The position numbers and the translations under genes are program-made. From Candidatus Micrarchaeota archaeon (GTDB lineage Archaea; Micrarchaeota; Micrarchaeia; Anstonellales; Bilamarchaeaceae), in assembly GCA_040753215.1 (NCBI GenBank), contig JBFMEZ010000029.1, positions 29,394-93,393 of the forward strand: a stretch of 64,000 bases of DNA, given 5' to 3'. Positions 2,979 through 63,234 of the stretch are shown one piece after another. The notes under the pieces were generated by a model. It saw only the letters and a program-made list of their open reading frames with translations, made no database searches and was not told the DNA's origin. Position 1 is the first letter of the stretch. Each line of letters opens with the position of its first letter.

Positions 2979-3140
2979 ATGGAACTCAAACAGGCCATCG
3001 TCATTCGCACCGACCTTGACATGGGCAAAGGCAAATTATGCGCCCAAGCAGCACACGCCTCCCTCTCCGCCCGGAAAAACGCGGGGGAAGCGTCCCCCCC
3101 ATTTTTACCGGTCATTCTGACCCCCCTCCACTTCCCTTAG
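2979..3140 (+). pseudogene. decoy 5' fragment of pth2 (31 codons, synonymously diverged) fused in-frame to hairpin element; 53-codon ORF ending TAG
   Basis: [31 protein letters not shown] matches Pth2 N-terminus at 3217; then ..[22 protein letters not shown]. Confidence 0.6.
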
Positions 3141-3216
3141 CCATCCTTGGCACGCCTCCTTACGCACCTCCGCGCATCTAATATCAATATATATCTATCA
3201 TAACCAATCATTACTT
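3072..3216 (+). repeat. 5'-end-associated hairpin element, copy A (AAAAACGCGGGGGA-AGCG-TCCCCCCCATTTTT core plus AT-rich promoter-like tail)
   Basis: Core shared with copies at 21060 and 31384; 6-bp GC stem + T5; tail contains TATA-like ATATATAT 30 nt before pth2 ATG. Confidence 0.6.
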
Positions 3217-21044: not shown

Positions 21045-21182
21045 TGCTCATGGCAATCGCAAGAAAAAACGCGGGGGAAGCGTCCCCCCCATTTTCCTCC
21101 ACCTTTCTGACCCCCCTCCACTTCGCTTTGAGGCGCTTTGAACGCGCTCCTTACGCAAGGGGCAACACAGGGGTGAACTGAA
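21045..21182 (+). repeat. 5'-end-associated hairpin element, copy B, with 12-nt decoy of rpl29 start (ATGGCAATCGCA); 43-codon read-through ORF 21050-21181
   Basis: AAAAAACGCGGGGGAAGCGTCCCCCCCATTTT core identical to copy A; ends GGGGTGAACTGAA-ATG (new RBS for rpl29). Confidence 0.65.
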
Positions 21183-24276: not shown

Positions 24277-24663
24277 ATGTCAATAGACCTTTTGGCAGAT
24301 GCGCTCAACACGCTGAAAACCCACGAGATCAAGGGCGAGGAAAGGTGCGAGGTGCGCGCTTCCAGGACAGTCTCCGAGGTGTTCCGCATCCTCCGGGAAA
24401 AGGGCTACATCGCGTCCTACGAGTTCATAGACGACGGGAAGGGCGGCTATTTCGACGTGAAGCTCTCGGGCACGATAAACGACTGCGGCGTGATAAAGCC
24501 CCGCTTCCCGGTCAAGAAGAGCGAATGGGCGAAGCTTGAGGAGAGGTACATCCCCGGGGTGGGCGTAGGCCTGCTCGTGGTCTCCACGCCCCAGGGAATA
24601 ATGACCAACACGGACGCCCAGGAGAGGCAGATAGGCGGAAGGCTGCTTGCCTTCGTATATTAG
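24277..24663 (+). CDS. rps8: ribosomal protein uS8
   Basis: 128 aa. Confidence 0.9.
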   Translation: MSIDLLADALNTLKTHEIKGEERCEVRASRTVSEVFRILREKGYIASYEFIDDGKGGYFDVKLSGTINDCGVIKPRFPVKKSEWAKLEERYIPGVGVGLLVVSTPQGIMTNTDAQERQIGGRLLAFVY

Positions 24664-27651: not shown

Positions 27652-28068
27652 ATGCCAAGAAGAAAGCAGAAGAGAAAAATCAGGATGAGGGGTTCCCGCT
27701 TCCACGGCTTCGGCAACGTAAAGAACAAGAGGGGCAAGGGATGCAGGGGAGGCGTGGGCCGCGCAGGCCTGCACAAGCACAAGTTCTCCTGGACCGCAAG
27801 GCACAATCCTGACTACGGCCGCCTGATGGGCTTCGTCCCGCACGCACCCGGCCGCCGCCTCCCGGCCACCAACCTTTTCGAGATAAACACCCTTGCGGAG
27901 AAGGGCGGCCTCCAGCAGAAGGAGGGGAAGCTCCAGTTCGAATTCCGCGGAAAAATCCTCGGCGCCGGAGAGCTCCGCCACCCAATAGCCTTAAAAGCGC
28001 TCTCCTGGAGCAAGATAGCCGAGAGGAAGGTAAAGGAGGCAGGGGGAGAGCTTTCCAGGATTGAGTGA
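27652..28068 (+). CDS. rpl15: ribosomal protein uL15
   Basis: 138 aa. Confidence 0.9.
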   Translation: MPRRKQKRKIRMRGSRFHGFGNVKNKRGKGCRGGVGRAGLHKHKFSWTARHNPDYGRLMGFVPHAPGRRLPATNLFEINTLAEKGGLQQKEGKLQFEFRGKILGAGELRHPIALKALSWSKIAERKVKEAGGELSRIE

Positions 28069-29497
28069 ATACATGGGTGCCATAATAGATTTTATACACA
28101 AACTCTCGGGCTACCTGCCCGAAATAAGGGCCCCCACAAAGCTCCCCAGCATAAAGGAGCGCTTCCTCTGGACCGGAATCGCCCTCCTCCTCTTCTTCGT
28201 AATGTACAATGTTACCGTTTTCGGCGCATCCCACAGCGCGGGCGCCTTCGACTTCCTCCAGATGATTACCGCTTCCAAGATCGGCTCCCTGCTCACGACC
28301 TCCATCGGCCCCATAGTGCTCGCATCCATCTTCCTCCAGCTCTTCTCCGGCGCGGGCCTCATAGACCTCGACCCGAAGAACCCCGAGCAGAGGCAGAAGT
28401 TCCAGGAAGTGCAGAAGGTCCTCGCCCTCATAATCGCCCTTGTGGAGGCCTCCATATTCGTTTTCACCGGCCGCATCCCCCTTGTTCAGAATTCGCCTTT
28501 CGACCCCACCCTGCTCGCCGCCCTCGTCATATTCCAGGTTTCCCTCGGCTCCGCCATAGTCCTCTACCTTGACGAGATCGTCACAAAATACGGAATCGGC
28601 TCCGGCATCTCCCTATTCATCGCCGCAGGGGTCTCCTTCTCCATCATCGGCGGCGCCATCTCCCTTTTCGTGGGGGAAGGCGGCGTCGCCTCCGTGGTCG
28701 CGGGAGGCGGCGCAGAGGCGATCCCCAACGCCCTGCTCGTGCTCCTTCCCCTTCTCGTCACGCTCGCCGTTTTCGCGGCGGTCTGCTACGGCGAGGGCGT
28801 AAAGGTGGAAATCCCCCTCGCCTACCAGCAGGCCCGCGGAGTAGCCCCGAAGCTCCCCCTCAACCTCTTCTACCTCTCAAACATCCCGGTCATCTTCGCC
28901 TCCGCCCTGCTCCTGAACCTGCAGCTCTTCTCGGCGGGCCTGGAGGGAAAGAGCTTCATGCTCGGCGATTTCGACCTCGTGCCCGCAATCGGCTACGTGG
29001 ATTCCACGGGCCAGCTCCGCGACGGCCTCCTCTATTTCTTCACCCCGGTCTTCGGCGGCAACACGCTCTCCCAGATAAATTTCCTGATGAACGGCGTGAC
29101 CCCGCTCTTCGGCATCCCGGAATGGCTGCATGCCATAATCTACGTTATTTTCCTTGCCCTCGTCTCCGTCCTTTTCGGGATGTTCTGGGCCGAGACCGCG
29201 AACATGGACACCAAGGGCATGACAAACCAGCTCATGCAGTCCGGCATGCAGGTCCCGGGATGGAGGCGCGACCCGAGGATGATGGAGAAGGTGCTTGAAA
29301 AATACATCCCGCCCCTCATAATACTCGGCTCCTTCCTGGTCGGCCTCCTCGCAGGCCTTGCAGACCTCACCGGAGCCCTCGGCACTGGCACGGGGATACT
29401 CCTTACCGTGGGCATCTTCTACCGCACCTACCTCCAGATGAAGAGGCAGAGGATGCTCGAGGCGATGCCGATATTCGAAACCATCGCAGGTGAATGA
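28061..29497 (+). CDS. secY: preprotein translocase SecY
   Basis: 478 aa, 10 TM helices. Confidence 0.9.
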   Translation: MSEYMGAIIDFIHKLSGYLPEIRAPTKLPSIKERFLWTGIALLLFFVMYNVTVFGASHSAGAFDFLQMITASKIGSLLTTSIGPIVLASIFLQLFSGAGLIDLDPKNPEQRQKFQEVQKVLALIIALVEASIFVFTGRIPLVQNSPFDPTLLAALVIFQVSLGSAIVLYLDEIVTKYGIGSGISLFIAAGVSFSIIGGAISLFVGEGGVASVVAGGGAEAIPNALLVLLPLLVTLAVFAAVCYGEGVKVEIPLAYQQARGVAPKLPLNLFYLSNIPVIFASALLLNLQLFSAGLEGKSFMLGDFDLVPAIGYVDSTGQLRDGLLYFFTPVFGGNTLSQINFLMNGVTPLFGIPEWLHAIIYVIFLALVSVLFGMFWAETANMDTKGMTNQLMQSGMQVPGWRRDPRMMEKVLEKYIPPLIILGSFLVGLLAGLADLTGALGTGTGILLTVGIFYRTYLQMKRQRMLEAMPIFETIAGE

Positions 29498-30128
29498 GAT
29501 GATAATCGTAATGGGCCTTCCGGGCGCAGGCAAGTCCTCAGTCCTCGCAGGTATAGAAGGAATGGTGACACCTCAGAGCGACCGCGCAGGCCTGCGCGGC
29601 TCTGGTGCCGAATGGCCACAAGGGGCCTTCGGCACTCACTCCGAGGTGTCAGGCTGGAAAACCCTAAACTACGGGACACTGATGTTCGAAATAGCGAAGG
29701 AGCGCTTCGGGCTCTCCCACCGCGACGAGCTCCGCAGGCTTCCCGTTGAGAAGCAGAAGAAAGTCCAGGAGGAAGTCGCCCTCCGCCTTTCCAAAGAGAG
29801 GGGAAAAGTGATTCTTGACACCCACTGCTCGATAAAGACCCCCCGCGGCTACCTCCCCGGCCTTCCGTTCTCCCTCCTCGAGAAGCTCACCATTGATGCG
29901 GTAGTCCTCATCACCGCAAACCCAGAAGAAATAATGGGCCGCAGAAAAGCCGACGAGAGCCGCGTGCGCGACCCCGAAACCCTCGATTCCATACGCGAGC
30001 ACGACCTGATGAACAAGGCGCTGCTCGCCTCTTACGCGGCCCACCGCGGCTGCCCGGCCCGCATAATCTACAACCACGACGGGAAGCTGGAGGAAGCGGT
30101 GCGCCAGCTCCGCGGGATGCTGGAGTGA
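29490..30128 (+). CDS. adkA: archaeal-type adenylate kinase (AdkA) carrying an in-frame 31-codon insertion
   Basis: GLPGAGKSS P-loop, ..DTHCSIKTPRGYLPGLP.. archaeal Adk motifs. Confidence 0.85.
   Translation: MNEMIIVMGLPGAGKSSVLAGIEGMVTPQSDRAGLRGSGAEWPQGAFGTHSEVSGWKTLNYGTLMFEIAKERFGLSHRDELRRLPVEKQKKVQEEVALRLSKERGKVILDTHCSIKTPRGYLPGLPFSLLEKLTIDAVVLITANPEEIMGRRKADESRVRDPETLDSIREHDLMNKALLASYAAHRGCPARIIYNHDGKLEEAVRQLRGMLE
29562..29654 (+). other. 93-nt GC-rich nested-hairpin insertion inside adkA coding sequence (in frame)
   Basis: Outer stem GTGACACCTC/GAGGTGTCA enclosing two palindromic hairpins (AGAGC..GCGCAGG|CCTGCGC..GCTCT; GTGCCGAA..GGCC..GGCC..TTCGGCAC); the 31-aa segment MVTPQSDRAGLRGSGAEWPQGAFGTHSEVSG has no counterpart in archaeal AdkA as I remember the family. 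Confidence 0.55.
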
Positions 30129-30132
30129 ACAA

Positions 30133-30942
30133 ATGATAACCACCGGAAACTTCTTCTGGATAGTCACCCTCCTCGGCATAGTTTACTCGCTCTCAATCCG
30201 CTTCATCCAGATGAGATTCACGGACCAGGAGAGGATGAAATCCCTCCAGAAGCAGATGAACGACCTTAACAAGGAATACTTCTCCGCAATGAAATCCGGC
30301 AACAAGAAGCGCATGGATTCCATCCAGGAGGAGCAGAACAAGCTGATGCCCCAGTTCAGCGGGATGATGATGGGCCAGCTCAAGCTCATGGCTGCGATAA
30401 TATCCATATTCCTCGCCTTCATGGCCGTGGTGAACGCGCTCGACCCGTTCCTCCAGGACGACAAGGTCTTCGAGCTATTCCCGTCCGGCACCCAGCAAAC
30501 AGCGTCCTCCCGGTTCTGCGGTTCCTTCCCAGTCTCCTGCTCTTCCTCCGGCCCTTGGCTCGTGGAGGTCACCGCCTATTCCGGGGGTTCAGAAAAAGGG
30601 GCCAACAGCACTTACATCTATTGCGGCAGCGAAGGCGGAATCCGCCCCTCGCCCGTAACCAGGGGCACCCCCTTCCCAATAACAACCGATAAAAAAGTTT
30701 ATGCGCAGAATGATACTGCCACGGTGTGCATTTCCGCACCCGTAGGCACAGACCGCGCGGAGGGAAAAACCAACTCGGGCACGTGGTTCATGGTTCCGCT
30801 CCCATTCGCCATACCCGTGCTTAACGTGGACGTGATAAACGGGGCGAACATCTGGTTCATCCTCGTTTCCATAATATCCGGCCTGGTTTTCTCCTTCGCA
30901 TGGGGAAAAATAAAGAAGAAAGACGAAAAGGTGAAATCATGA
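30133..30942 (+). CDS. DUF106/EMC3-Oxa1-like membrane insertase homolog with ~100-aa Cys/Ser/Thr/Gly-rich extracytoplasmic insertion
   Basis: Conserved post-adk position; TM1 + coiled region + TM2/3 typical of DUF106; extra segment FELFPSGTQQ..TNSGTWFMVP. Confidence 0.6.
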   Translation: MITTGNFFWIVTLLGIVYSLSIRFIQMRFTDQERMKSLQKQMNDLNKEYFSAMKSGNKKRMDSIQEEQNKLMPQFSGMMMGQLKLMAAIISIFLAFMAVVNALDPFLQDDKVFELFPSGTQQTASSRFCGSFPVSCSSSGPWLVEVTAYSGGSEKGANSTYIYCGSEGGIRPSPVTRGTPFPITTDKKVYAQNDTATVCISAPVGTDRAEGKTNSGTWFMVPLPFAIPVLNVDVINGANIWFILVSIISGLVFSFAWGKIKKKDEKVKS

Positions 30943-31294: not shown

Positions 31295-31469
31295 GATGAT
31301 AATAACAGTATGGGGATGGACCGGTGCAGGGAAGAATACCCTCGGCGAGCTTCTCGCAAAGCGCCTCGGCTACCGCACCACCAAAAACGCGGAGGGGGAG
31401 ACCCCCTCCCCATTTTTAGGTGTCATTCTGACCCTCCCCCCGGTTCTTTCGAATGAGGTGAATGCATGA
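31295..31469 (+). repeat. 5'-end-associated hairpin element, copy C, preceded by ~88-nt decoy of cmk 5' end; 57-codon read-through ORF ending ATGA-overlapped with true cmk start
   Basis: 69 nt identical to cmk 31478-31546 plus 19 diverged nt; core AAAAACGCGGAGGGGGAGACCCCCTCCCCATTTTT with compensatory stem changes relative to copies A/B. Confidence 0.65.
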
Positions 31470-37059: not shown

Positions 37060-37420
37060 TCTCCTTTTTGCCATCGTGAACCTCGGCCTCTGCATCGCTG
37101 CGGCGATGTCTGGCGAAGTTCTGCGGAACTTCACCATCGCTCGGTGCAAAAAGGAGTCCAAAAACCCCAAGCACCTTCACGCTGGCGGCGAAACCGGAGC
37201 CCAAAAACCCCAGACAAAAGGGATTACTATAACGCTGCGTTTCCCTTTTATTCTTTTGCCCGTTAATTCGCGTTTTTTTCTCCCGTTTCTTCCCTCTTCC
37301 CCCGCCCAACACCCTTTTTAAGCATTTCTACGGAATATTCTCTCTACGCGTGTTCTTGCGTTCAGAGAATATGAGCCTTAACCCATTTCCTCTCGCGCGA
37401 GCCACGCATTTGGTGATTAT

Positions 37421-38146
37421 TTGGGAAGTAAAAAGAAAATACAGAAAAAGGCCCCGGAGGAGGAAAAGTCCGCCGAGGTAAAGGTGGAAGAGAAGAAGAA
37501 AGCCAAGCCCGCCCCGAGGAAGGAGGAGGCGCTCGAGCCCGGGCTCCGCGGCATCGTCCGCGTAGCGGGCAAGGATATGCGCGGCAATCTCAAGCTTTCA
37601 AGGGGGCTTATGCGCGTGCGCGGCTTCGGCCACACGATGAAGAACGTCGCAGCGAACGCCATAGCGGAGGAGCTCGGCATATCCCCCACCGAGAAGGTCG
37701 GGAAGCTCTCCGATGAGCAGATAGAGCGCATAGACAAGCTGCTCACCACCCTGCACACAAAGAACGTCCCGCCCTACCTCCTGAACAGGAGGAAGGACCC
37801 GGACACAGGCAAGGACGTCCACGTAATAATGAACGACCTCGCGTTCACGCAGCGCCAGGACATAGAGCGCGAGAAGAAGCTCTACACCTGGAGGGGGTAT
37901 AGGCACGCTTACGGAAAGAAGGTGCGTGGCCAGAGGACACGCAACACCGGAAGGAAGGGGATGGCCCTGGGAGTGATGAGGAAGACCATCCTCGCGGCAG
38001 CAGCCGCAGCCAAGGCGGGCGCAGCGGGCAAGCCCGGAGCGCCGGGGGCACCGGCCGCAGGTGCGCCCGCAGCTGGTGCGCCGGCCGGTGCGGCAGCTGC
38101 GCCAAAGGCAGCGCCGGCACCAGCCGCAAAAGAGGCCAAGAAATAG
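37421..38146 (+). CDS. rps13: ribosomal protein uS13 with KE-rich N-terminal and Ala/Gly/Pro-rich C-terminal extensions (TTG start)
   Basis: ..IVRVAGKDMRGNLKLSRGLMRVRGFG.. core; tail AAAAAKAGAAGKPGAPGAPAAGAPAAGAPAGAAAAPKAAPAPAAKEAKK. Confidence 0.8.
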   Translation: MGSKKKIQKKAPEEEKSAEVKVEEKKKAKPAPRKEEALEPGLRGIVRVAGKDMRGNLKLSRGLMRVRGFGHTMKNVAANAIAEELGISPTEKVGKLSDEQIERIDKLLTTLHTKNVPPYLLNRRKDPDTGKDVHVIMNDLAFTQRQDIEREKKLYTWRGYRHAYGKKVRGQRTRNTGRKGMALGVMRKTILAAAAAAKAGAAGKPGAPGAPAAGAPAAGAPAGAAAAPKAAPAPAAKEAKK

Positions 38147-42688: not shown

Positions 42689-42807
42689 TGAACCTCCACG
42701 GGTGCGCGGAAGCCAGGCGATTGGCCATTGATGAGCGCACCCCACAGTGTGGCTTCCGCCTAAAGCCTTAAAAGCCGGAAGCCATGGCTTTAGCCCGTGG
42801 AGGTTCA
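42689..42807. repeat. 119-bp MITE-like palindromic element with 14-bp perfect terminal inverted repeats (TGAACCTCCACGGG / CCCGTGGAGGTTCA) and internal palindromes
   Basis: Begins 4 nt upstream of the regulator start codon; internal GGAAGCCA/TGGCTTCC and AAGCCATGGCTT palindromes. Confidence 0.55.
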
Positions 42808-48576: not shown

Positions 48577-50147
48577 GCGATATCCTTCCCTATGATATCC
48601 TGAACAAGGGCTGGAAAGCCACCTGCAAAATCCTCTTAGGCGAGGAAATAGGCGAGCTCAGCGATTACAGGGAATGGCTCTCGGAGTTCCTTCCTCCCAC
48701 CGGAAAAACCCATTCCCACCTCTCCGGAAAGGAAGTAACCCTCGCCATGGATGCCTACTGCCCAAAATCCAGGTTCATCTCTTCCGATGAAATAAAGGAA
48801 AAGAAGCTCGCCCCCCTCTCCATAGACCAGGTAAAGGACATAGATTCCATCGCAGAAGCAATCTCAGAAAGATGGGAATACACCGGAAACAGGGTCCTCG
48901 GCAATTCCTCTTCTGTAGATTCCTCCGACCTGGTAATGGATTCCCAGTTCGTCTCCGGCTCCACCAACATCCAGCAGTCCTCCTACGTTTATTCCTCTGC
49001 CCTCGCCCGCATGGGCAGCAAATACATCTACGGCTCCCACGGCTTCGCCCAGGGCGAGTTCCTCATCCGCCACTGCGCGGGCTTCAACCTCAAGCGCCAG
49101 TTCGAGACCCACTTCATAACCGACAGCAGTGACCTCTATTTCGCATTCAACTGCATAGGCTGCAGCGAGCTCCTCTTCTCCTTCTTCCAGCGCAACAAGC
49201 GCCATTGCATAGGAAATCTCCAGCTTCCCAAGGAGAAATATCTCTCCCTCAAGAAGAAGCTCCTGTCCGAAGTGGCCTCCGAGCTTAAGAGAAACAAGCG
49301 CTTCCCATCCCTTTTCCACCTGGTTCCGAACAGCAAGCCTCGCCATTCCCTTTCCATCCCGCAATCCAGGCCCAAAGAGGACATGCCCGCAATAGACAAA
49401 GCGTTCTCCTCCGCCTTCAAGGTCATTTTCAGAAAGGATGCGCAATCCGTATTCCCATACGAAAAATGGCTCTCCCGCCAGCTCCTCGGCATAAGCGAGA
49501 TAAAGTCCCCCTTCGGCCACAAGACCTGTTTCCCAGAGACCAAGGCAATGTTCCTCTTCTTCACCGCCCCCCGCAGCCGCATGGTCTCCCTTGCCGAAGG
49601 GATGGAACTCGGAAAGCGCCACCTCGAAGAGCCGCAGCTCTCCTCCCTTTCCAGCATAATAGATAATCTGGGTGAAATCGGCTATTTCACAGCCGAATTC
49701 CTGGACGGCCCGGTCACCAACGCCATAAGCACGCCCATCGCCTACTATTCCTCCAACGTCTACAAGGCGCTGGACGCAACCCATTCCGAATACTCGGGCC
49801 TCTCCTCCCAGGTGCTGAACTCAAAATACTGCTTCGGCGGCTTCCGCATATTGGAGTCCCAGTTCTGCCTCAACTGCTACAATTCCCTCAATCTTTCCCG
49901 TTGCCTGGAAGTGGACACTTCCGAGAAATGCTCCGACTCCCTCTTCTGCCACAACTCCGAAGGGCTCGCGGAATGCATGTTTTGCTTCAATCTTAAGGGG
50001 AAGAGGTATGCAATAGGCAATTCGCCCCTTCCGCCGCAGGAATATCTCAAGGTGAAGGATTCCCTTCTTTCCCAGATGGCCGATGAACTGGAGCGCAACC
50101 ACTTGCTCCCCTACGACATATTCAACATCGGCTGTGCAGGTGCATGA
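48573..50147 (+). CDS. Cys-containing internally duplicated repeat protein, family member P1 (unknown function)
   Basis: 524 aa; N-term WKATCKILLGEEIGEL..EWLSE; halves end in C.GCSE..FSFNxRxKRHxIGN..LPxxKY and CxN....C.MFCFNxKxKRYAIGNSxLP motifs; C-term DIFNIGC. Confidence 0.5.
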   Translation: MSDILPYDILNKGWKATCKILLGEEIGELSDYREWLSEFLPPTGKTHSHLSGKEVTLAMDAYCPKSRFISSDEIKEKKLAPLSIDQVKDIDSIAEAISERWEYTGNRVLGNSSSVDSSDLVMDSQFVSGSTNIQQSSYVYSSALARMGSKYIYGSHGFAQGEFLIRHCAGFNLKRQFETHFITDSSDLYFAFNCIGCSELLFSFFQRNKRHCIGNLQLPKEKYLSLKKKLLSEVASELKRNKRFPSLFHLVPNSKPRHSLSIPQSRPKEDMPAIDKAFSSAFKVIFRKDAQSVFPYEKWLSRQLLGISEIKSPFGHKTCFPETKAMFLFFTAPRSRMVSLAEGMELGKRHLEEPQLSSLSSIIDNLGEIGYFTAEFLDGPVTNAISTPIAYYSSNVYKALDATHSEYSGLSSQVLNSKYCFGGFRILESQFCLNCYNSLNLSRCLEVDTSEKCSDSLFCHNSEGLAECMFCFNLKGKRYAIGNSPLPPQEYLKVKDSLLSQMADELERNHLLPYDIFNIGCAGA

Positions 50148-50148
50148 T

Positions 50149-51726
50149 ATGGACACATACGAAGCCCTCAACCGCTCCTGGAAATCCCTCTGCCGCCTTC
50201 TTCTGGGCGAAGAGATAGGCGAGATGAAAGAATACGAGAAATGGCTCACCCAATACCTTGAGCCCATGCGCGTGGAGCGCTCTGCAATCTCAGGCAAGGA
50301 TGTATATGTAGCGGTTCCAGAATACTGCAAAGATGCAAAATTCATCTCCCTAGAAGACACTCAATCTTCCAAGCCCGCCCCCCTCTCCATCAACGAAATC
50401 AAGGACATAGACTCAATAATGGAATCCCTCCGCGAGCGCTTCCTCTACTCCGGCAACGTCATCCTTTCCAATTCCCGCGATGTTTCCCAGAGCACCAACA
50501 TCCAGAACTCCTTCCACGTGCTCCGCTCCAACTTCATCTGGGATTCCGAATACATTGGCTACTCCTCCATGGTCCGCGGCGGCAAGCATCTTATTGGAGT
50601 AAACAACGACGCCTACTCCTCATTCATGCTCAGCAGCATGGAAACCTACAAGAACAGCCGCTGCCTGGAGCTGTGGGAATCCTTCGACTGCACCGAATCC
50701 TATTTTGTGTTCGGCTCATGGAACTGCCAGAACATCCTTTTCTCCTTCAACCAGCGCAACAGGCGCAACGTAATCGGAAACATCGAGCTCCCGCGCGACA
50801 AATTCCTTTCCCTCAAGAGCAAGTTAATAGAAGAGATGCGCGATGAGCTGAAGCGCAACAAATCCCTGCCTTCTCTCTTTGAAATCGCATCTGCCAACCT
50901 GAGGAGATCGAAAATACCCGCCGGCTTCCATACTGAAGAGATGCAGGAAGGCACGGACAAGGGCATAATAGAGGACGCATTCCGCAAGACCACGAAAATA
51001 GTCTTCGGGAAAGAGCTGCAGGACATGGATGCCTATGGGGATTGGCTCCTGCGCCACGTGATAAAAACGAAACCCGCTGTTTCCGCAGCCACGGGCAGGC
51101 CCACCTCCCTGAGCTCACACGCCCCTTACAAATTCTATCCAAGGAACCGTCTCGTGAAGATGAATGAGGCAGTGAAGCTCGGCGAAATCCTCCATATGGA
51201 TGAATCTGACATCCACTCGCTCGATTCCCTCAAGGACTCCCTCTGGAAAATCGCGTTCTTCTGCTCCGAGATAATGCTCGGCGAAAACAAAAACCTGATT
51301 GGAGTGATGCTCGCCAACCAGTCCAGCAACTGCTACAATGGTTCGGTCTATTCCTATGATGAATACTGCGGCTTCTCCTTCTGGCCAAGGGACTCCAAAT
51401 ATATGTTCGGCTCATCTATGGCCTTCTCCTCCAATTTCTGCATCAACGCCTACAATTCCCTCAACCTCTCGCGCTGTTTTGAGGTGGACGGCTGCAGCAG
51501 CTCCTCCGACCTCTACTTCTCCCACAACTGCGAGAACGCGCAGGACGCGATGTTCTGCTTCAATTCCAAGAATCTTAAGCACTCGATAGGCAATTCCGCG
51601 CTCCCGCCCGATAAATACAAGTCCCTGAAATCCTCGCTCCTCTCCCAAATCTCAGACGAGCTTGAGAAGACCAAATCCCTCAGATGGGACATCTTCAACC
51701 TGGGCTGTCCAAAGGTGCCATCCTGA
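50149..51726 (+). CDS. Cys-containing repeat protein, family member P2
   Basis: ~525 aa; same architecture as P1; start overlapping P1 stop. Confidence 0.5.
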   Translation: MDTYEALNRSWKSLCRLLLGEEIGEMKEYEKWLTQYLEPMRVERSAISGKDVYVAVPEYCKDAKFISLEDTQSSKPAPLSINEIKDIDSIMESLRERFLYSGNVILSNSRDVSQSTNIQNSFHVLRSNFIWDSEYIGYSSMVRGGKHLIGVNNDAYSSFMLSSMETYKNSRCLELWESFDCTESYFVFGSWNCQNILFSFNQRNRRNVIGNIELPRDKFLSLKSKLIEEMRDELKRNKSLPSLFEIASANLRRSKIPAGFHTEEMQEGTDKGIIEDAFRKTTKIVFGKELQDMDAYGDWLLRHVIKTKPAVSAATGRPTSLSSHAPYKFYPRNRLVKMNEAVKLGEILHMDESDIHSLDSLKDSLWKIAFFCSEIMLGENKNLIGVMLANQSSNCYNGSVYSYDEYCGFSFWPRDSKYMFGSSMAFSSNFCINAYNSLNLSRCFEVDGCSSSSDLYFSHNCENAQDAMFCFNSKNLKHSIGNSALPPDKYKSLKSSLLSQISDELEKTKSLRWDIFNLGCPKVPS

Positions 51727-55193: not shown

Positions 55194-55241
55194 TCGGATA
55201 TAGTCGCTCGTTCTTGAATCGTAAATCCTATCGGATTTCAG

Positions 55242-55315
55242 TATCGCTGCGGCGATATCTGGCAGAATTCTGCGGAATTCCGCCATCCGATAGCGGGCAA
55301 AGTTTCCGGATTTTG
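55242..55315. repeat. composite palindromic intergenic module, copy 2 (TATCGCTGCGGCGATA .. GGCAGAATTCTGCGGAATTCCGCC ..)
   Basis: Matches 1950-2062 module. Confidence 0.6.
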
Positions 55316-59309: not shown

Positions 59310-60857
59310 ATGCACTCCGCAATATACGAACGCCTCAACACAAAATGGAAAGAGGCATGCAAAATACTGTTTAGAGAGGAGGTCGGCAACCTCCGCGTAT
59401 ATGAAGGCTGGCTTTCCGAATGCATTGAGCCTGTATCCGTACAAAAATCCCAAATTCCAGGCAAAGAAGTAGTAGCGGTGGGCGATTACCGCGGCTCAAA
59501 ACTCATCTCCTTCGCAGATATCGACTTCTTCAGAAAATACCCTCCTCTCAGCATAAATGACATAAAGGACATAGACAGCATAATCCGCGCGGCGCGGGAA
59601 AGGGCCGAATATGCGGGCAACATAGTGCTCGGCAACTCCTCAAATGCCGAATCCAGCACCGGGATAGAAGACTGCAGCAACATCCTTTCCTCCCACACAT
59701 ACAACTCTTCCCAGGATGTGGCCTTCTCCACGCTGGGCAGGGTAGATGAGTCAGTCTTCGGCTGCGTCCTTGTCGGGCAATCCAGCTTTTCCATAAAGAC
59801 CGTGCTAGGACGGCACCTGGCCCGCACCCTCGAATCTTCCTATGCGCTCGAATGCTCCGACATATATTTCTCCCACCAGATGCGCGGCTGCTCGGAATGC
59901 ATGTTTTCCTTCAACCTCCGCGGCAAGAGGCACGTAATAGGCAATGTCCAGCTTCCCCAGGACAAATACCAATCCATAAAGAAAAAGCTCCTCCCCGAGC
60001 TTGCGGATGAGCTGAAGAAAAACAAGAGGCTCAGGCCGTTGAGGGATTTCATCCCCAGGGAGCCGCCCCAAGCCGCGCGTCCCGCCCCCCAAAGCCCCGT
60101 GCACATGCCTCAGGCGGCCCCGGACCTTAAGATGGTGGAGGACGCCTTCCAAAAAACAACCGATCTCATATTCGGCAGGAAGCTCCAGGGCATCTCCTCC
60201 TTCGGCCCCTACCTCTCCAGGCACACCCGGTGCGACCCCAAGGCCCGCGGGATGGCGCTCAACAAGCTGTTCCCAGAAGGCAAAAGAACGGTAAGCCTTG
60301 AAGAGCACGGCTCATATTCGCACCCGCAGGCCTGGCCCGAAGCCCTGGATATCGGCTCTTTCGGCCTTTCCAACGTCGGAACGCTCATAAGCCCAATCGC
60401 CTTTTTCTGCCCGGACATCCAGGAGCAATCCTCCAACATGGTCGAGTGCTCCAATTTCACCAATTCCTACCATTGCTTCCACTCCAGCAATTTATACTTC
60501 GTAAAATTCGCCGCTTATTCCTTCTGGCCCAGGGACTGCGAACACGTTTTCGGCTGCGACTCCCTCCGCACCTCCTCCTTCTGCATAAACTGCTACAACT
60601 CGTTCAAGCTTAGCCGCTGTTTTGAAGTGGATACCTCCCAGGACTGCACCGGCTCCTATTTCCTGCATAACTGCGAGAACGTCCACGACTCGATGTTCTG
60701 CTTTAACGTAAAGAACAAGAGGTATGCGATAGGAAATGCAGAAGTTGGCAAGGAGAAATTCTTCGAAGCAAAGAAGGCCCTTCAACTCTGGCTGCTTTCC
60801 CAGTTGGAGAAGAAGGGCTCCGTGGATTTGGACATTTACAATATCAATAAGAAATAA
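59310..60857 (+). CDS. Cys-containing repeat protein, family member P3
   Basis: ~515 aa; same motifs (CSECMFSFNLRGKRHVIGN; CENVHDSMFCFNVKNKRYAIGN). Confidence 0.5.
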   Translation: MHSAIYERLNTKWKEACKILFREEVGNLRVYEGWLSECIEPVSVQKSQIPGKEVVAVGDYRGSKLISFADIDFFRKYPPLSINDIKDIDSIIRAARERAEYAGNIVLGNSSNAESSTGIEDCSNILSSHTYNSSQDVAFSTLGRVDESVFGCVLVGQSSFSIKTVLGRHLARTLESSYALECSDIYFSHQMRGCSECMFSFNLRGKRHVIGNVQLPQDKYQSIKKKLLPELADELKKNKRLRPLRDFIPREPPQAARPAPQSPVHMPQAAPDLKMVEDAFQKTTDLIFGRKLQGISSFGPYLSRHTRCDPKARGMALNKLFPEGKRTVSLEEHGSYSHPQAWPEALDIGSFGLSNVGTLISPIAFFCPDIQEQSSNMVECSNFTNSYHCFHSSNLYFVKFAAYSFWPRDCEHVFGCDSLRTSSFCINCYNSFKLSRCFEVDTSQDCTGSYFLHNCENVHDSMFCFNVKNKRYAIGNAEVGKEKFFEAKKALQLWLLSQLEKKGSVDLDIYNINKK

Positions 60858-60872
60858 TCGCAGCAGCTTTAA

Positions 60873-60903
60873 AAATTCACTACTATATAATCATAATAGT
60901 GAA
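60873..60903. promoter_or_regulatory. palindrome TTCACTACTATATAATCATAATAGTGAA overlapping GTG start of TrmB paralog 3 (TATA box + candidate operator)
   Basis: AATTCACTACTAT also at 58372-58384 upstream of TrmB paralog 2. Confidence 0.45.
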
Positions 60904-61651
60904 AGAAATAGAAGAAATCCTGAAGAAAGTGGGCCTAACCACGCAGGAATCCCGCGTATACCTTGCGCTCCTTGAGCTCCAAGAGGCGCAGACCGGCCGC
61001 CTCTGCTCCTTCACCGGCATAGCCAGCTCCAACATCTACAACATCCTCCGCTCCCTCATGCAAAAGGGCCTCGCAAGCTACCGTGTGCAGAACAATACCC
61101 GCGTCTTTCTCCCCGCCTCACCAGATGCGCTGAACGAGCTTTTCCTTGAAAAGCAGAAGAAACTTGATGAGGAACGCCGCGAGGTCACAGCGCTCGTCTC
61201 CAGCCTGAAGAAGAGAAAGGTTGAGACCGAACCCTACTCCAATTACAAATACTACGAAGGAATTTCTGGCGTAAAATCCATGTGGCATGAAATCAACGGC
61301 TTCATGTCCCCGGACTCAACCGCCCTTGTATACACCTCCCGCCGCGCAGCCTATGAAAAATTGATAAGCTTCTACGACGTACACCATAAAATGCGCCGTG
61401 AAAAGGGGATAAAGGAGCTTATGGTTTTCCCGGACGAGGACAGGGAACTCGGCCACAAGCGACGCAACAGATATACGGAAGTCCGCTTCAGCAGCATAAA
61501 AAGCGACGCAGAATGGGGCATTATAAGGGACCGCCTCTACATCCAGTACATCACCGGAAAAGTCCCCCGCGCATTCCTCATAAAAGACGAGACCTTCGCC
61601 AACACCTTCCGCGAGGTCTTCTCAAAGCTCTGGGAGCGTGCAAAGCCATGA
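60899..61651 (+). CDS. TrmB-family transcriptional regulator (paralog 3), GTG start
   Basis: 250 aa; ATGA overlap with P4. Confidence 0.65.
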   Translation: MKEIEEILKKVGLTTQESRVYLALLELQEAQTGRLCSFTGIASSNIYNILRSLMQKGLASYRVQNNTRVFLPASPDALNELFLEKQKKLDEERREVTALVSSLKKRKVETEPYSNYKYYEGISGVKSMWHEINGFMSPDSTALVYTSRRAAYEKLISFYDVHHKMRREKGIKELMVFPDEDRELGHKRRNRYTEVRFSSIKSDAEWGIIRDRLYIQYITGKVPRAFLIKDETFANTFREVFSKLWERAKP

Positions 61652-63234
61652 AAAGCAGGAGCCAATCCTCACAGGTATATGAACACCTGAACAAGAGTTG
61701 GAAGGATGCCTGCAAAATCCTGCTCAAGGAAGAGGTGGGCAATCTCAACGAATACGAGGGCTGGCTCTCCGAATGGCTTGAGCCCTCCCGAATGCGCAAA
61801 TCCCCCTCCGGAGAAGACGTCCTGACTGTTGGCGACTATTGCGATTCCGCCTCTTTCGTTCCATTTTCAGGAATCGACCTGATGAAAAAATACCCTCCCC
61901 TCAGCATAAACGAAATAAAAGACATTGATTCCATTCTCTCTGCCACACAGGAAAGAATCTATTACGCCGGCAACATAGTGCTCGGCAAATCCTCCAACGT
62001 GGAAGAGAGCACCGGCATAGAGGACTGCAACTTTGCCCTCCGCTCCCACTCATGCAATTCCTCCCAAGACATTGCCTTCTGCACCCAGATGAGGGAGGAC
62101 CGCTCTCTTTTCGGCTGCGTGATGTGTGGGGAGTCAAGCTTCACTATAAAATGCTACGGCAACTGGCGCACCGCCCGCTCCCTCCTCTCCAGCACTATCC
62201 ACGAATCCTCGGACATATACTTCTCCCACAAGCTCACCGGCTGCTCAGAATGCATGTTCTCATTCAACCTCCGCGCAAAGCACCACGCGATAGGGAACAC
62301 CCCTCTTCCCTCCGAAAAATACCTGCCATTAAAGCAGAAACTCCTCTCCGAACTCGCCGAAGAGCTTAGGAAGAAGAAAAGGCTCCCAAACCTTGTGGAT
62401 TTCTTTCCTCCTCAACCGTCCAAACCCAGCACACCAAAAACCATTCCTCTCCCCAGGAAAAATGAGGATTTCGAGCTTATAGAAGACGCCTTCCATACCA
62501 CCTCCGAGCTCCTCTTAGGAAAAAACACCCTCCATCTCAAGCCCCTATCCAATTACCTCTCCCGCCACGTCCGCGCCATCCAGAAGCTCCCATCCTGCGT
62601 TAGCGGAAAGGACGTCTTCCGCTGCAGCACCCGCTTTGACGACGTGGTTTCCAAATGCGGCAGGATGGTCCGCCTTGATGAATACGATTCCGTCTCCCAT
62701 CCGCAGGAACTCCCTCATGGGATGGAGAAGCTCTCCCTTTCCGGCATAACCCCGCTCATAAGCCCAGTAGCATACTACTGCCCCGAGGCGGCCGAGCAGT
62801 TTGAGAACGCGATTGAATGCAACGACATCTACTCCGCATACCATTGCTACCGCGCAAGCAAGGTCTACTTCACCAAGTTCACAGCATTCTCTTACTGGGC
62901 AAGGAACTGCGAATACACGTTCGGCTGCGACTCCCTGCGCACTTCTTCGTTCTGCATCCAGTGCCACAACTCCTTCAAGCTGAGCCGCTGTTTTGAGGTT
63001 GATACCTCACAGGACTGCACCGGCTCCTACTTCCTGCACAATTGCGAGAACGTGCATGACTCCATGTTTTGCTTCAATACCAAAAACAAAAGGTATGCAA
63101 TAGGCAATTCCGAGGTTGGAAAAGAGAACTTCCTCAAAGCCAAATCCGCCCTCCAGGCCTGGCTCCTTTCCCAGCTCGAAAGGAGCGGCTCCGTAGAGCT
63201 GGACATATACAATATTGGCTGCCGCAAACCCTGA
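61648..63234 (+). CDS. Cys-containing repeat protein, family member P4
   Basis: ~528 aa; closest to P3 (C-terminal 130 aa nearly identical). Confidence 0.5.
   Translation: MKSRSQSSQVYEHLNKSWKDACKILLKEEVGNLNEYEGWLSEWLEPSRMRKSPSGEDVLTVGDYCDSASFVPFSGIDLMKKYPPLSINEIKDIDSILSATQERIYYAGNIVLGKSSNVEESTGIEDCNFALRSHSCNSSQDIAFCTQMREDRSLFGCVMCGESSFTIKCYGNWRTARSLLSSTIHESSDIYFSHKLTGCSECMFSFNLRAKHHAIGNTPLPSEKYLPLKQKLLSELAEELRKKKRLPNLVDFFPPQPSKPSTPKTIPLPRKNEDFELIEDAFHTTSELLLGKNTLHLKPLSNYLSRHVRAIQKLPSCVSGKDVFRCSTRFDDVVSKCGRMVRLDEYDSVSHPQELPHGMEKLSLSGITPLISPVAYYCPEAAEQFENAIECNDIYSAYHCYRASKVYFTKFTAFSYWARNCEYTFGCDSLRTSSFCIQCHNSFKLSRCFEVDTSQDCTGSYFLHNCENVHDSMFCFNTKNKRYAIGNSEVGKENFLKAKSALQAWLLSQLERSGSVELDIYNIGCRKP

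Follow-up and report, generated by a model that had tools for sequence, protein, structure and literature searches.

The adenylate kinase gene adkA of a Candidatus Micrarchaeota (DPANN) metagenome-assembled genome is interrupted, in frame, by an 87-nt (29-codon) element located at positions 29565-29651 on the + strand of the analysed 64,000-nt stretch of DNA (the window). The element has been inserted precisely, with a target duplication of 1 nt at most, at three or more places, and it is probably one copy of a low-copy, MITE/RPE-like, non-autonomous mobile palindrome of a narrow Micrarchaeia clade, which is tolerated in frame and in loops only. Its extent was determined by DNA alignment with the empty sites of two insert-free adk alleles (L003 and L004) and by protein alignment; the 93 nt (31 codons, 29562-29654) attributed to it in the initial annotation proved slightly too large.

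The host gene (29499-30128, + strand, from the ORF list) lies within an archaeal ribosomal-protein cluster, flanked by secY (28061-29497) on one side and by the gene of an EMC3/DUF106-like membrane protein (30133-30942) on the other. Its product has 209 AAs with the insert versus 180 AAs in insert-free orthologs and is identical to P0001, an adenylate kinase of Candidatus Micrarchaeota encoded on a 108-kb contig. It matches the Pfam family AAA_17 (1.5e-29) and the adenylate kinase structures 3h86, 1kht, 1ki9 and 6pjw of the PDB (1e-34 to 1e-35). An AF2 model based on a 118-sequence alignment reached a mean pLDDT of 87.3 and a pTM of 0.81 and, like the Pfam and PDB matches, conforms to a P-loop kinase fold; by homology and predicted fold, adkA is a bona fide archaeal adenylate kinase AdkA. 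Among the 120 AdkA homologs listed, 113 have a length of 176-190 AAs (typically 180), two have extra length at the C-terminal end only, and an AdkA of 209 AAs with an insert at this position is found only in P0001 (the window), P0002 and P0003. The insert is absent from more than 100 AdkA orthologs, including one with a 77% identical AdkA, as well as from all matched AdkA structures of the PDB, which bears out the claim that the segment is foreign to archaeal AdkA. The DNA encoding P0002 and P0003 is structured likewise, with the insert shifted by 9 nt, unlike the orthologs with the same residues in ordinary, unstructured codons that the initial annotation had named as incompatible with an insertion.

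The element starts with GTGACACCTC, ends with GAGGTGTCA and encodes residues 23-51 of AdkA (VTPQSDRAGLRGSGAEWPQGAFGTHSEVS). Its boundary is ambiguous by one G, thus 29566-29652 is equally valid, and it may alternatively be described as an 86-nt element (29566-29651) accompanied by a 1-nt G duplication. The left terminal inverted repeat, the 5' arm of the outer stem (TGACACCTCAGAGCGA, 29566-29581), was recognized as inverted repeat I21 and in the consensus fold, and so was its counterpart, the right terminal inverted repeat forming the 3' arm (TCACTCCGAGGTGTCA, 29636-29651). These 16-nt repeats (TGACACCTCAGAGCGA / TCGCTCTGAGGTGTCA) are perfect in L001 and L002, the adk copies of a second lineage, and agree at 14 of 16 positions in the window copy, where the two deviating positions of the right arm form A.C mismatches on the + strand and G.U wobbles on the - strand. 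The stem encloses two inner hairpins, both supported by the fold of the window copy and by the consensus fold: hairpin 1 (29582-29599, CCGCGCAGG/CCTGCGCGG) is an 18-nt perfect palindrome, while hairpin 2 (29605-29635) reads GTGCCGAA-T-GGCC-ACAAGG-GGCC-TTCGGCAC. The outer stem of 9-10 bp described initially (GTGACACCTC/GAGGTGTCA) is therefore real but extends to 16 pairs, and both hairpins exist as described. The termini of the element are 5'-TG...CA-3'. Ends of this kind are typical of DDE-transposase substrates, which we take as a lead only. The element ends (GAGGTG/CACCTC) and the target sites resemble Shine-Dalgarno sequences; this resemblance was judged non-significant, the sites being too few.

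The fold of the window element, a 16-pair outer stem around two hairpins, has a minimum free energy of -55.1 kcal/mol on the + strand (z -4.2) and of -64.0 kcal/mol on the - strand (z -6.6), the latter being equalled by none of 200 shuffles. In a GC-corrected sliding scan of the whole window with 110-nt segments, the element ranks first among the outliers on the - strand (z -4.8) and second on the + strand. Its inverted-repeat pattern has an expectation of 0.00 in shuffles, and the window copy scores 108.7 bits with the covariance model. The assertion that the segment is more structured than coding sequence normally is has thus been confirmed on both strands, and on the - strand it is the strongest structure outlier of the 64-kb window.

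Comparison of filled and empty sites carries the evidence of mobility. The filled site of adk in the window, GGAATG-element-GGCTGG, corresponds to GGAATG^GGCTGG in the empty allele of L003 (full reading GGAATGGGCTGG), whose AdkA is 77% identical to that of the window and whose adk DNA is 84% identical once the insert is left out. In L001 and L002, two independent Logan assemblies that represent the second lineage, the filled site is GGCGCC-element-GAGGGG, 9 nt upstream of the window site; its empty allele is GGCGCC^GAGGGG in L004 (full reading GGCGCCGAGGGG), with flanks 94.7% identical to those of L001. Because they lie 9 nt apart, the two adk sites cannot derive from one insertion event. The third site is in the gene of an EndA-like protein (P0121, PF01974, 179 AAs) on the 1.03-Mb contig JBAZFC010000001.1, in which an 84-nt variant of the element (VTPQSARAGPRGSGAEGSVPFGTHSEVS) follows directly after KELIYAFV in the same reading frame as the adk copies; the adk of the genome carrying this copy is insert-free. 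P0122 (151 AAs), an 87% identical ortholog of P0121, lacks exactly those 28 residues. Each of the three sites has therefore a precise empty ortholog, and the closest AdkA relatives (77-95% identity) are precisely empty as well. The filled and empty alleles at the two sites with DNA-level empty counterparts differ by a target duplication of 0-1 nt (a G), and the same flanking G is present at the EndA site. The copies were assembled independently (NCBI, Logan, JGI and ENA), which rules out an assembly artefact.

The flanks of the empty L004 are closer to those of the filled L001 than the flanks of the filled L002 are, which presupposes that the element was precisely lost, gained repeatedly at one site or exchanged by allelic recombination. 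Two of the three known events took place within 9 nt in the same adk gene; random insertion followed by selection accounts only weakly for this double event.

Searches for further copies extended over several collections. A strict scan for the end pattern in one genome per species (185,579 species) yielded one further copy, that of the EndA site, and a scan of JGI metagenomes found the same EndA locus again and no new site. The scan of viral contigs gave 0 matches, and BLAST against phages and plasmids revealed nothing meaningful. When concatenated single-sequence peptides of both stop-free frames were compared with 5.8 billion proteins, only the three AdkA proteins and P0121 were recovered; profiles of the 4-row peptide alignments of both frames, which are too short for this purpose, gave no match at E up to 10. 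A covariance model derived from the four known copies detected no credible second copy in the 64-kb window or in the approximately 75 kb of L001-L008. Its weak matches at 24547-24630 of the window and at 11890-11973 of L004 were rejected, as they fold no better than shuffles, and those at 2877-2932 and 42689-42807 of the window are different palindromes. The terminal repeat of the element has no second match in the window at up to 3 mismatches, and neither the 64-kb window nor L001-L008 yielded an autonomous element that shares its ends. The 1.03-Mb contig JBAZFC010000001.1 contains one strict-pattern copy rather than multiple copies. The search for other copies proposed in the initial annotation thus ended with none more in the 64-kb window and with copies in the adk of L001/L002 and in the EndA-like gene. 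In all the collections searched, three sites are known, all of them intragenic, in two unrelated housekeeping genes, and each genome appears to carry very few copies.

In the AF2 model of AdkA, residues 23-45 have a pLDDT below 50 and adopt a coil conformation between the helix 12-21 and the strand 53-57, while the model outside the insert is above 90. The model thereby places the insert in a loop, a location that the initial annotation had recommended determining by alignment with orthologs and structures. In the EndA-like protein, the alignments with the endonuclease of M. jannaschii (PDB code: 1a79) and with the orthologs end exactly at the insert, at a position that we take, from the EndA fold, to be a β-hairpin turn. 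Considering the coil in AdkA and the presumed turn in the EndA-like protein, both hosts accept the insert where a loop can lengthen.

The three copy lengths, 87, 87 and 84 nt, are all multiples of three. Of the six reading frames, only +1 and -3 are stop-free in every copy, because the element ends contain TGA and CTCTGAGG. With two open frames and lengths in threes, the element would therefore be viable in only one codon phase per orientation, and each of the three insertions observed has phase 0 and the +1 orientation. The +1 frame specifies a peptide rich in Gly, Ser, Ala and Pro, whereas the -3 frame specifies a very basic peptide with Cys. The element has no coding capacity for a transposase, the 28-29-codon read-through frames being its sole open frames. 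From the conservation of the frame we infer that the insert would be translated by read-through as a loop of 28-29 residues.

Conservation of the element exceeds that of the adk coding core. The window and L001 copies differ at 10 of 87 positions (11.5%), compared to 22% in the adk coding core and 44% at its third codon positions; L001 and L002 differ at a single position of the 87 in the element and by 7.4% in the adk core (P about 0.01). The left arm is identical at 15 of 16 bases in the four copies, its last base differing in the EndA copy, and the last 9 bases of the right end are identical in all copies. Compensatory double changes were detected at four base pairs: hairpin 1 shows an A:U to G:C change in L001/L002, the inner stem of hairpin 2 turns from GGCC/GGCC in the window into GTTC/GAAC in L001/L002, and the top of the outer stem shows an A:U to C:G change. 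In L007 the inner stem of hairpin 2 is GGC/GCC in a shifted register. Paired cells amount to 95-98% versus 30-49% in slid controls. By contrast, 7 of the 10 differences between the window and L001 alter the amino acid (L>P, W>R, P>S, A>N, H>R), several of them radically. This pattern suggests that the stems are kept by selection at the nucleic acid level and that the peptide itself would be free of selection. The one-sided changes found in the outer stem and in hairpin 1 all result in A.C on the + (sense) strand and in G.U on the - (antisense) strand, where both helices are 100% paired; with three informative columns, this is no more than suggestive of a structure that may function on the antisense strand of the host gene. 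The insertions may be recent copies derived from a conserved source, or else purifying selection maintains the structure; both options fit ends and hairpins that are recognized by a recombination machinery.

We propose that the element is mobilized in trans by a recombinase or transposase that would recognize its ends or its hairpins. In genomes of approximately 1 Mb, which we assume to be mostly coding, only those insertions would survive that fall in codon phase 0, in the permissive orientation and in DNA encoding a surface loop or turn. Their translation product would be a disordered, Gly/Ser/Ala/Pro/Arg-rich loop of 28-29 residues that the enzyme tolerates. The stems would be selected as nucleic acid, possibly on the antisense strand as the G.U pairs suggest, and the peptide would not be selected. 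In a stronger version, which we consider rather unlikely, the element would be obligately intragenic and low-copy, confined to loop-coding DNA of housekeeping genes, with a real target preference, to which two of the three known hits, 9 nt apart in one adk loop, would point, and with hairpins acting on the antisense strand, and would occupy an intein-like niche without protein splicing. If this were true, it would represent no decaying MITE but a homing-like or single-strand-acting system new to archaea.

The rule for archaeal bulge-helix-bulge (BHB) introns is that the splice sites lie in two 3-nt bulges with a 4-bp helix between them and that exon sequence is involved. The initial annotation had offered such an intron as an alternative to a mobile insertion. 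In a BHB or relaxed-BHB form, the segment would be cut from the adk mRNA by the tRNA-splicing endonuclease, leaving a mature AdkA without the 29 residues. The segment is a strongly structured RNA, protein-gene introns are known in archaeal cbf5 (PMC2738675), and ARMAN-type endonucleases have a broad substrate range (PMC12397907). However, the two junctions face each other across the blunt base of an uninterrupted helix of 10-16 bp that lacks 3-nt bulges. The central 4-bp helix attains at most three of four pairs in both arrangements, at both boundaries and in the three contexts; when searched for explicitly, simultaneous pairing of the central helix and of the two helices beside it occurs in no arrangement, and the 12 nt around either end contain nothing that resembles a BHB in any context. 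In addition, the exon contexts at the three sites are unrelated, and all copies are stop-free with the frame kept by the 87- and 84-nt variants, which an excised intron would not need. The failed BHB test and the conserved open frame lead us to reject the intron as far as sequence can do so, and we hold it to be very improbable. Still harder to credit is a programmed translational hopping, by analogy with known cases, in which the insert would be kept in the mRNA and skipped by the ribosomes. T4 gene 60 and the mitochondrial 'byp' elements of Magnusiomyces are precedents, and a GC-rich, mobile-looking, strongly structured insert in an essential gene would be compatible with it, but the frame is open in all four copies, the length variants differ by exactly 3 nt, and the codons at the presumptive take-off and landing sites do not match (ATG/GGC in the window, GCC/GAG in L001 and GTT/GGA in L007).

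The insert might also be an old, vertically inherited, lineage-specific loop of AdkA with a function at the protein level, the palindrome being incidental and the loop lost in most relatives. About 80% of the 29 residues are common to the three AdkA proteins from two lineages and the element is well conserved, as such an origin would predict. Nevertheless, measured against unambiguous empty alleles the insert positions are three codons apart, relatives at 77-95% identity are precisely empty, amino acids change radically while base pairs are compensated, and AF2 assigns no structure to the insert; the presence of the same sequence in the unrelated EndA-like protein argues strongly against it. 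We deem this origin quite improbable. A primarily functional RNA or ssDNA structure antisense to adk, such as a small antisense or regulatory RNA or a protein-binding three-way junction whose mobility is secondary, is unlikely in our estimation, although several features point in its direction: folding is more favourable on the - strand (-64.0 versus -55.1 kcal/mol, z -6.6 versus -4.2), the one-sided changes of the outer stem and hairpin 1 are G.U pairs there, which leaves these helices 100% paired, and the element combines compensatory changes with a conservation above that of the coding core. Only three variable columns bear on the choice of strand, giving a chance probability of about 1 in 8, and conservation of the structure is expected equally if the hairpins are recognition sites of a recombinase. 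Rfam gave no match in the region 29450-29770 at E up to 10, and the filled and empty sites are not explained by an antisense RNA alone. For the whole window at gathering thresholds, Rfam gave one tRNA only; ARAGORN detected only a tRNA-Ser in the window. Readings as C/D sRNA, H/ACA sRNA or a tRNA-like molecule were discarded, as there are neither box motifs nor Rfam matches.

Besides the mobile palindrome in adkA, other small structured elements occur in the clade. A palindrome of approximately 68-70 nt with the ends TTCACCTTC/GAAGGTGAA is inserted in the adk stop codon of the L009 lineage, where it extends AdkA by 24 residues; four relatives lack it. The intergenic sequence at 42689-42807 of the window is a nested palindrome of 119 nt with the ends TGAACCTCCACGGG, and a third family, consisting of a hairpin followed by TTCTGACCCCCC, is located at the 5' ends of three genes of the window, adjoining duplicated gene starts. 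In view of these palindromes, the adk insert is one case of a wider traffic of small structured elements in reduced genomes. Textbooks present in-frame selfish palindromes as a curiosity of Rickettsia; a clean case in the reduced genomes of DPANN archaea means that the same lifestyle arises in another domain, inside essential genes. It also provides a natural experiment on which protein loops tolerate 29 added residues. For genome annotation it matters that such inserts inflate protein length and may pass for lineage-specific domains or introns. An uncharacterized insertion mechanism is hinted at by the two hits in the adk loop, by the missing target duplication and by the strand asymmetry of the wobbles.

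Our literature search brought to light no report of in-frame palindromes of this kind from DPANN or other archaea, and the known systems resemble the adk element in part. The intron of cbf5 in Crenarchaeota (PMC2738675) is likewise a short, structured intervening sequence that interrupts a housekeeping gene of archaea and has been gained and lost among relatives, but the adk insert has no BHB at its junctions, is in frame and stop-free, and lies in unrelated exon contexts. The GC-clusters and 'byp' elements of yeast mitochondria and the palindromes in coding sequences of Nematomorpha (PMC6649704) share with it the GC-rich or perfect palindromes within coding sequence; however, they are organellar and of high copy number, the byps are bypassed by the ribosome, and the palindromes of Nematomorpha are much longer. 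Compared to the byps, plain read-through translation is the simplest reading of the adk insert.

Palindrome-associated elements (PATEs), which derive from IS200/IS605 elements, are inserted 3' of a conserved tetra- or pentanucleotide and have subterminal hairpins but no terminal inverted repeats. The adk element shares with them only the absent target duplication and the two hairpins. On the + strand, the copies at the three sites are preceded by AATG, CGCC and CGTT, and on the - strand by AGCC, CCTC and CTCC, with no common target. An affiliation to PATEs was rejected on account of the missing shared target oligonucleotide and of the long terminal inverted repeats. IS200/IS605 elements are common in Micrarchaeota genomes (PMC13343696).

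[quoted passage not shown] The adk element resembles them in its small size, terminal inverted repeats and mobility, being transposase-free, stably folded and variably present among close relatives. It differs in that it lacks a 2-10-bp target-site duplication of fixed length (0-1 nt), is not multicopy in the genomes searched, has no parent insertion sequence among the 64-kb window and L001-L008, and is intragenic and in frame in all known copies. The proposal of the initial annotation that a MITE-like insertion is tolerated in a surface loop therefore stands in substance, considering the filled and empty sites, the three sites in two genes and the loop of the AF2 model, but a strict membership among MITEs does not, given the duplication of 0-1 nt and the single strict copy in the 1.03-Mb contig.

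The closest parallel in lifestyle is offered by the Rickettsia palindromic elements (RPEs; Ogata et al. 2000), palindromic selfish DNA found in frame in many unrelated genes at fold-compatible positions, with 44 copies in R. conorii (both as summarised in PMC10969869). Both are short, hairpin-forming, palindromic selfish DNAs that reside in frame in unrelated housekeeping genes, and both add peptide segments at positions compatible with the fold, translation of the adk element being presumed and its EndA turn being derived from knowledge of the fold. In both, the structure of the nucleic acid and not the peptide is apparently conserved. The adk element is archaeal (DPANN/Micrarchaeia) and approximately 86 nt long, whereas the RPEs are alphaproteobacterial, about 100-150 nt long and presumably of an unrelated sequence family, as homology is not expected with an archaeal host. 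It apparently occurs in one or a few copies per genome, with three sites in the collections searched, as opposed to dozens of RPEs; it is so far intragenic only, and it possesses long perfect terminal inverted repeats with TG...CA ends. By analogy, the adk element can be considered an archaeal analogue of the RPEs in lifestyle only.

Besides the 87-nt in-frame palindromic insert of adkA (the adk element), the window holds a second repeat family, AAAAACGCGGGGGA..TCCCCCCCATTTTTA..GGTCATTCTGACCCCCC. Its copies (3068-3155, 21058-21145 and 31381-31465) are situated in three genes (pth2-like, L29 and cmk), slightly internal to the 5' end of each; a further entry of the family is at L002:3060-3180, in a related Micrarchaeia locus. 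Upstream of every copy there is a truncated duplicate of the initial 13-98 nt of the gene (2974-3071/3212-3309, 31296-31379/31466-31549 and 21050-21062/21183-21195), and downstream of every copy a GGTGA Shine-Dalgarno-like motif is followed by the intact gene. In the related loci L003 and L004, L34e and cmk overlap and the element is absent. One possibility is that the family represents a portable terminator/promoter-like cassette whose insertion creates long and variable duplications of gene starts. It may be a greater oddity than the insert of adk. Upstream of the duplicated start of the pth2-like gene, TCAAACCGTGAAGCC and GGCTTCACGGTTTGA pair perfectly over 15 bp and enclose a loop of 25 nt (2878-2932).

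In another Micrarchaeia lineage (L009) a palindromic insert of about 68-70 nt, with the ends TTCACCTTC/GAAGGTGAA, is found within the stop codon at the 3' end of adk (L009:4553-4622). It lengthens the encoded AdkA, P0012, by about 24 residues, resulting in the C-terminus ...EPSGAASAMQAARR, and the homolog P0013 is lengthened in a similar way. L010, L003 and L004 lack this stop-codon insert, as does the window.

The EndA-like gene of L007, host of the third copy of the adk element, adjoins the gene of a 431-aa protein (the two genes being at L007:248-1543 and L007:1813-2421, both on the minus strand). The 431-aa protein has tRNA-intron endonuclease N- and C-terminal domains and may be a multi-unit ARMAN-type enzyme. 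The palindromic element is inside a subunit of the RNA-splicing endonuclease, a location that we find curious.

The window has three copies (1970-2019, 37089-37138 and 55238-55287) of a conserved intergenic motif of about 55 nt that contains the short hairpins ATCGCTGCGGCGAT and GAATTCTGCGGAATTC. A small RNA that has escaped annotation, or a regulatory motif, would be possible explanations. The copy that adjoins tRNA-Ser, 5' of the S13 operon, is within an 11-bp outer stem (37061-37156), and comparable stems are present at its position in L003 and L004. The S13-like protein (37421-38146) carries as its C-terminal tail an Ala/Pro/Gly low-complexity extension of 82% GC (38011-38140), and few other parts of the window are as highly structured. 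Four paralogous gene-sized repeats (families D1-D6 and D8), of 60-80% identity, form two tandem pairs (48800-51600 and 59500-63150).

Between the genes of a THEP1-like NTPase and an HTH regulator lies an intergenic nested palindrome of 119 nt (42689-42807; z -4.9) with inner hairpins, the ends of which palindrome, TGAACCTCCACGGG/CCCGTGGAGGTTCA, are perfect over 14 bp. Read on the minus strand, the terminal arm of the palindrome brings GGAGGT to a position 8 nt 5' of the ATG of the HTH regulator. The ends of this palindrome are similar to those of the adk element (TGA.ACCTC).
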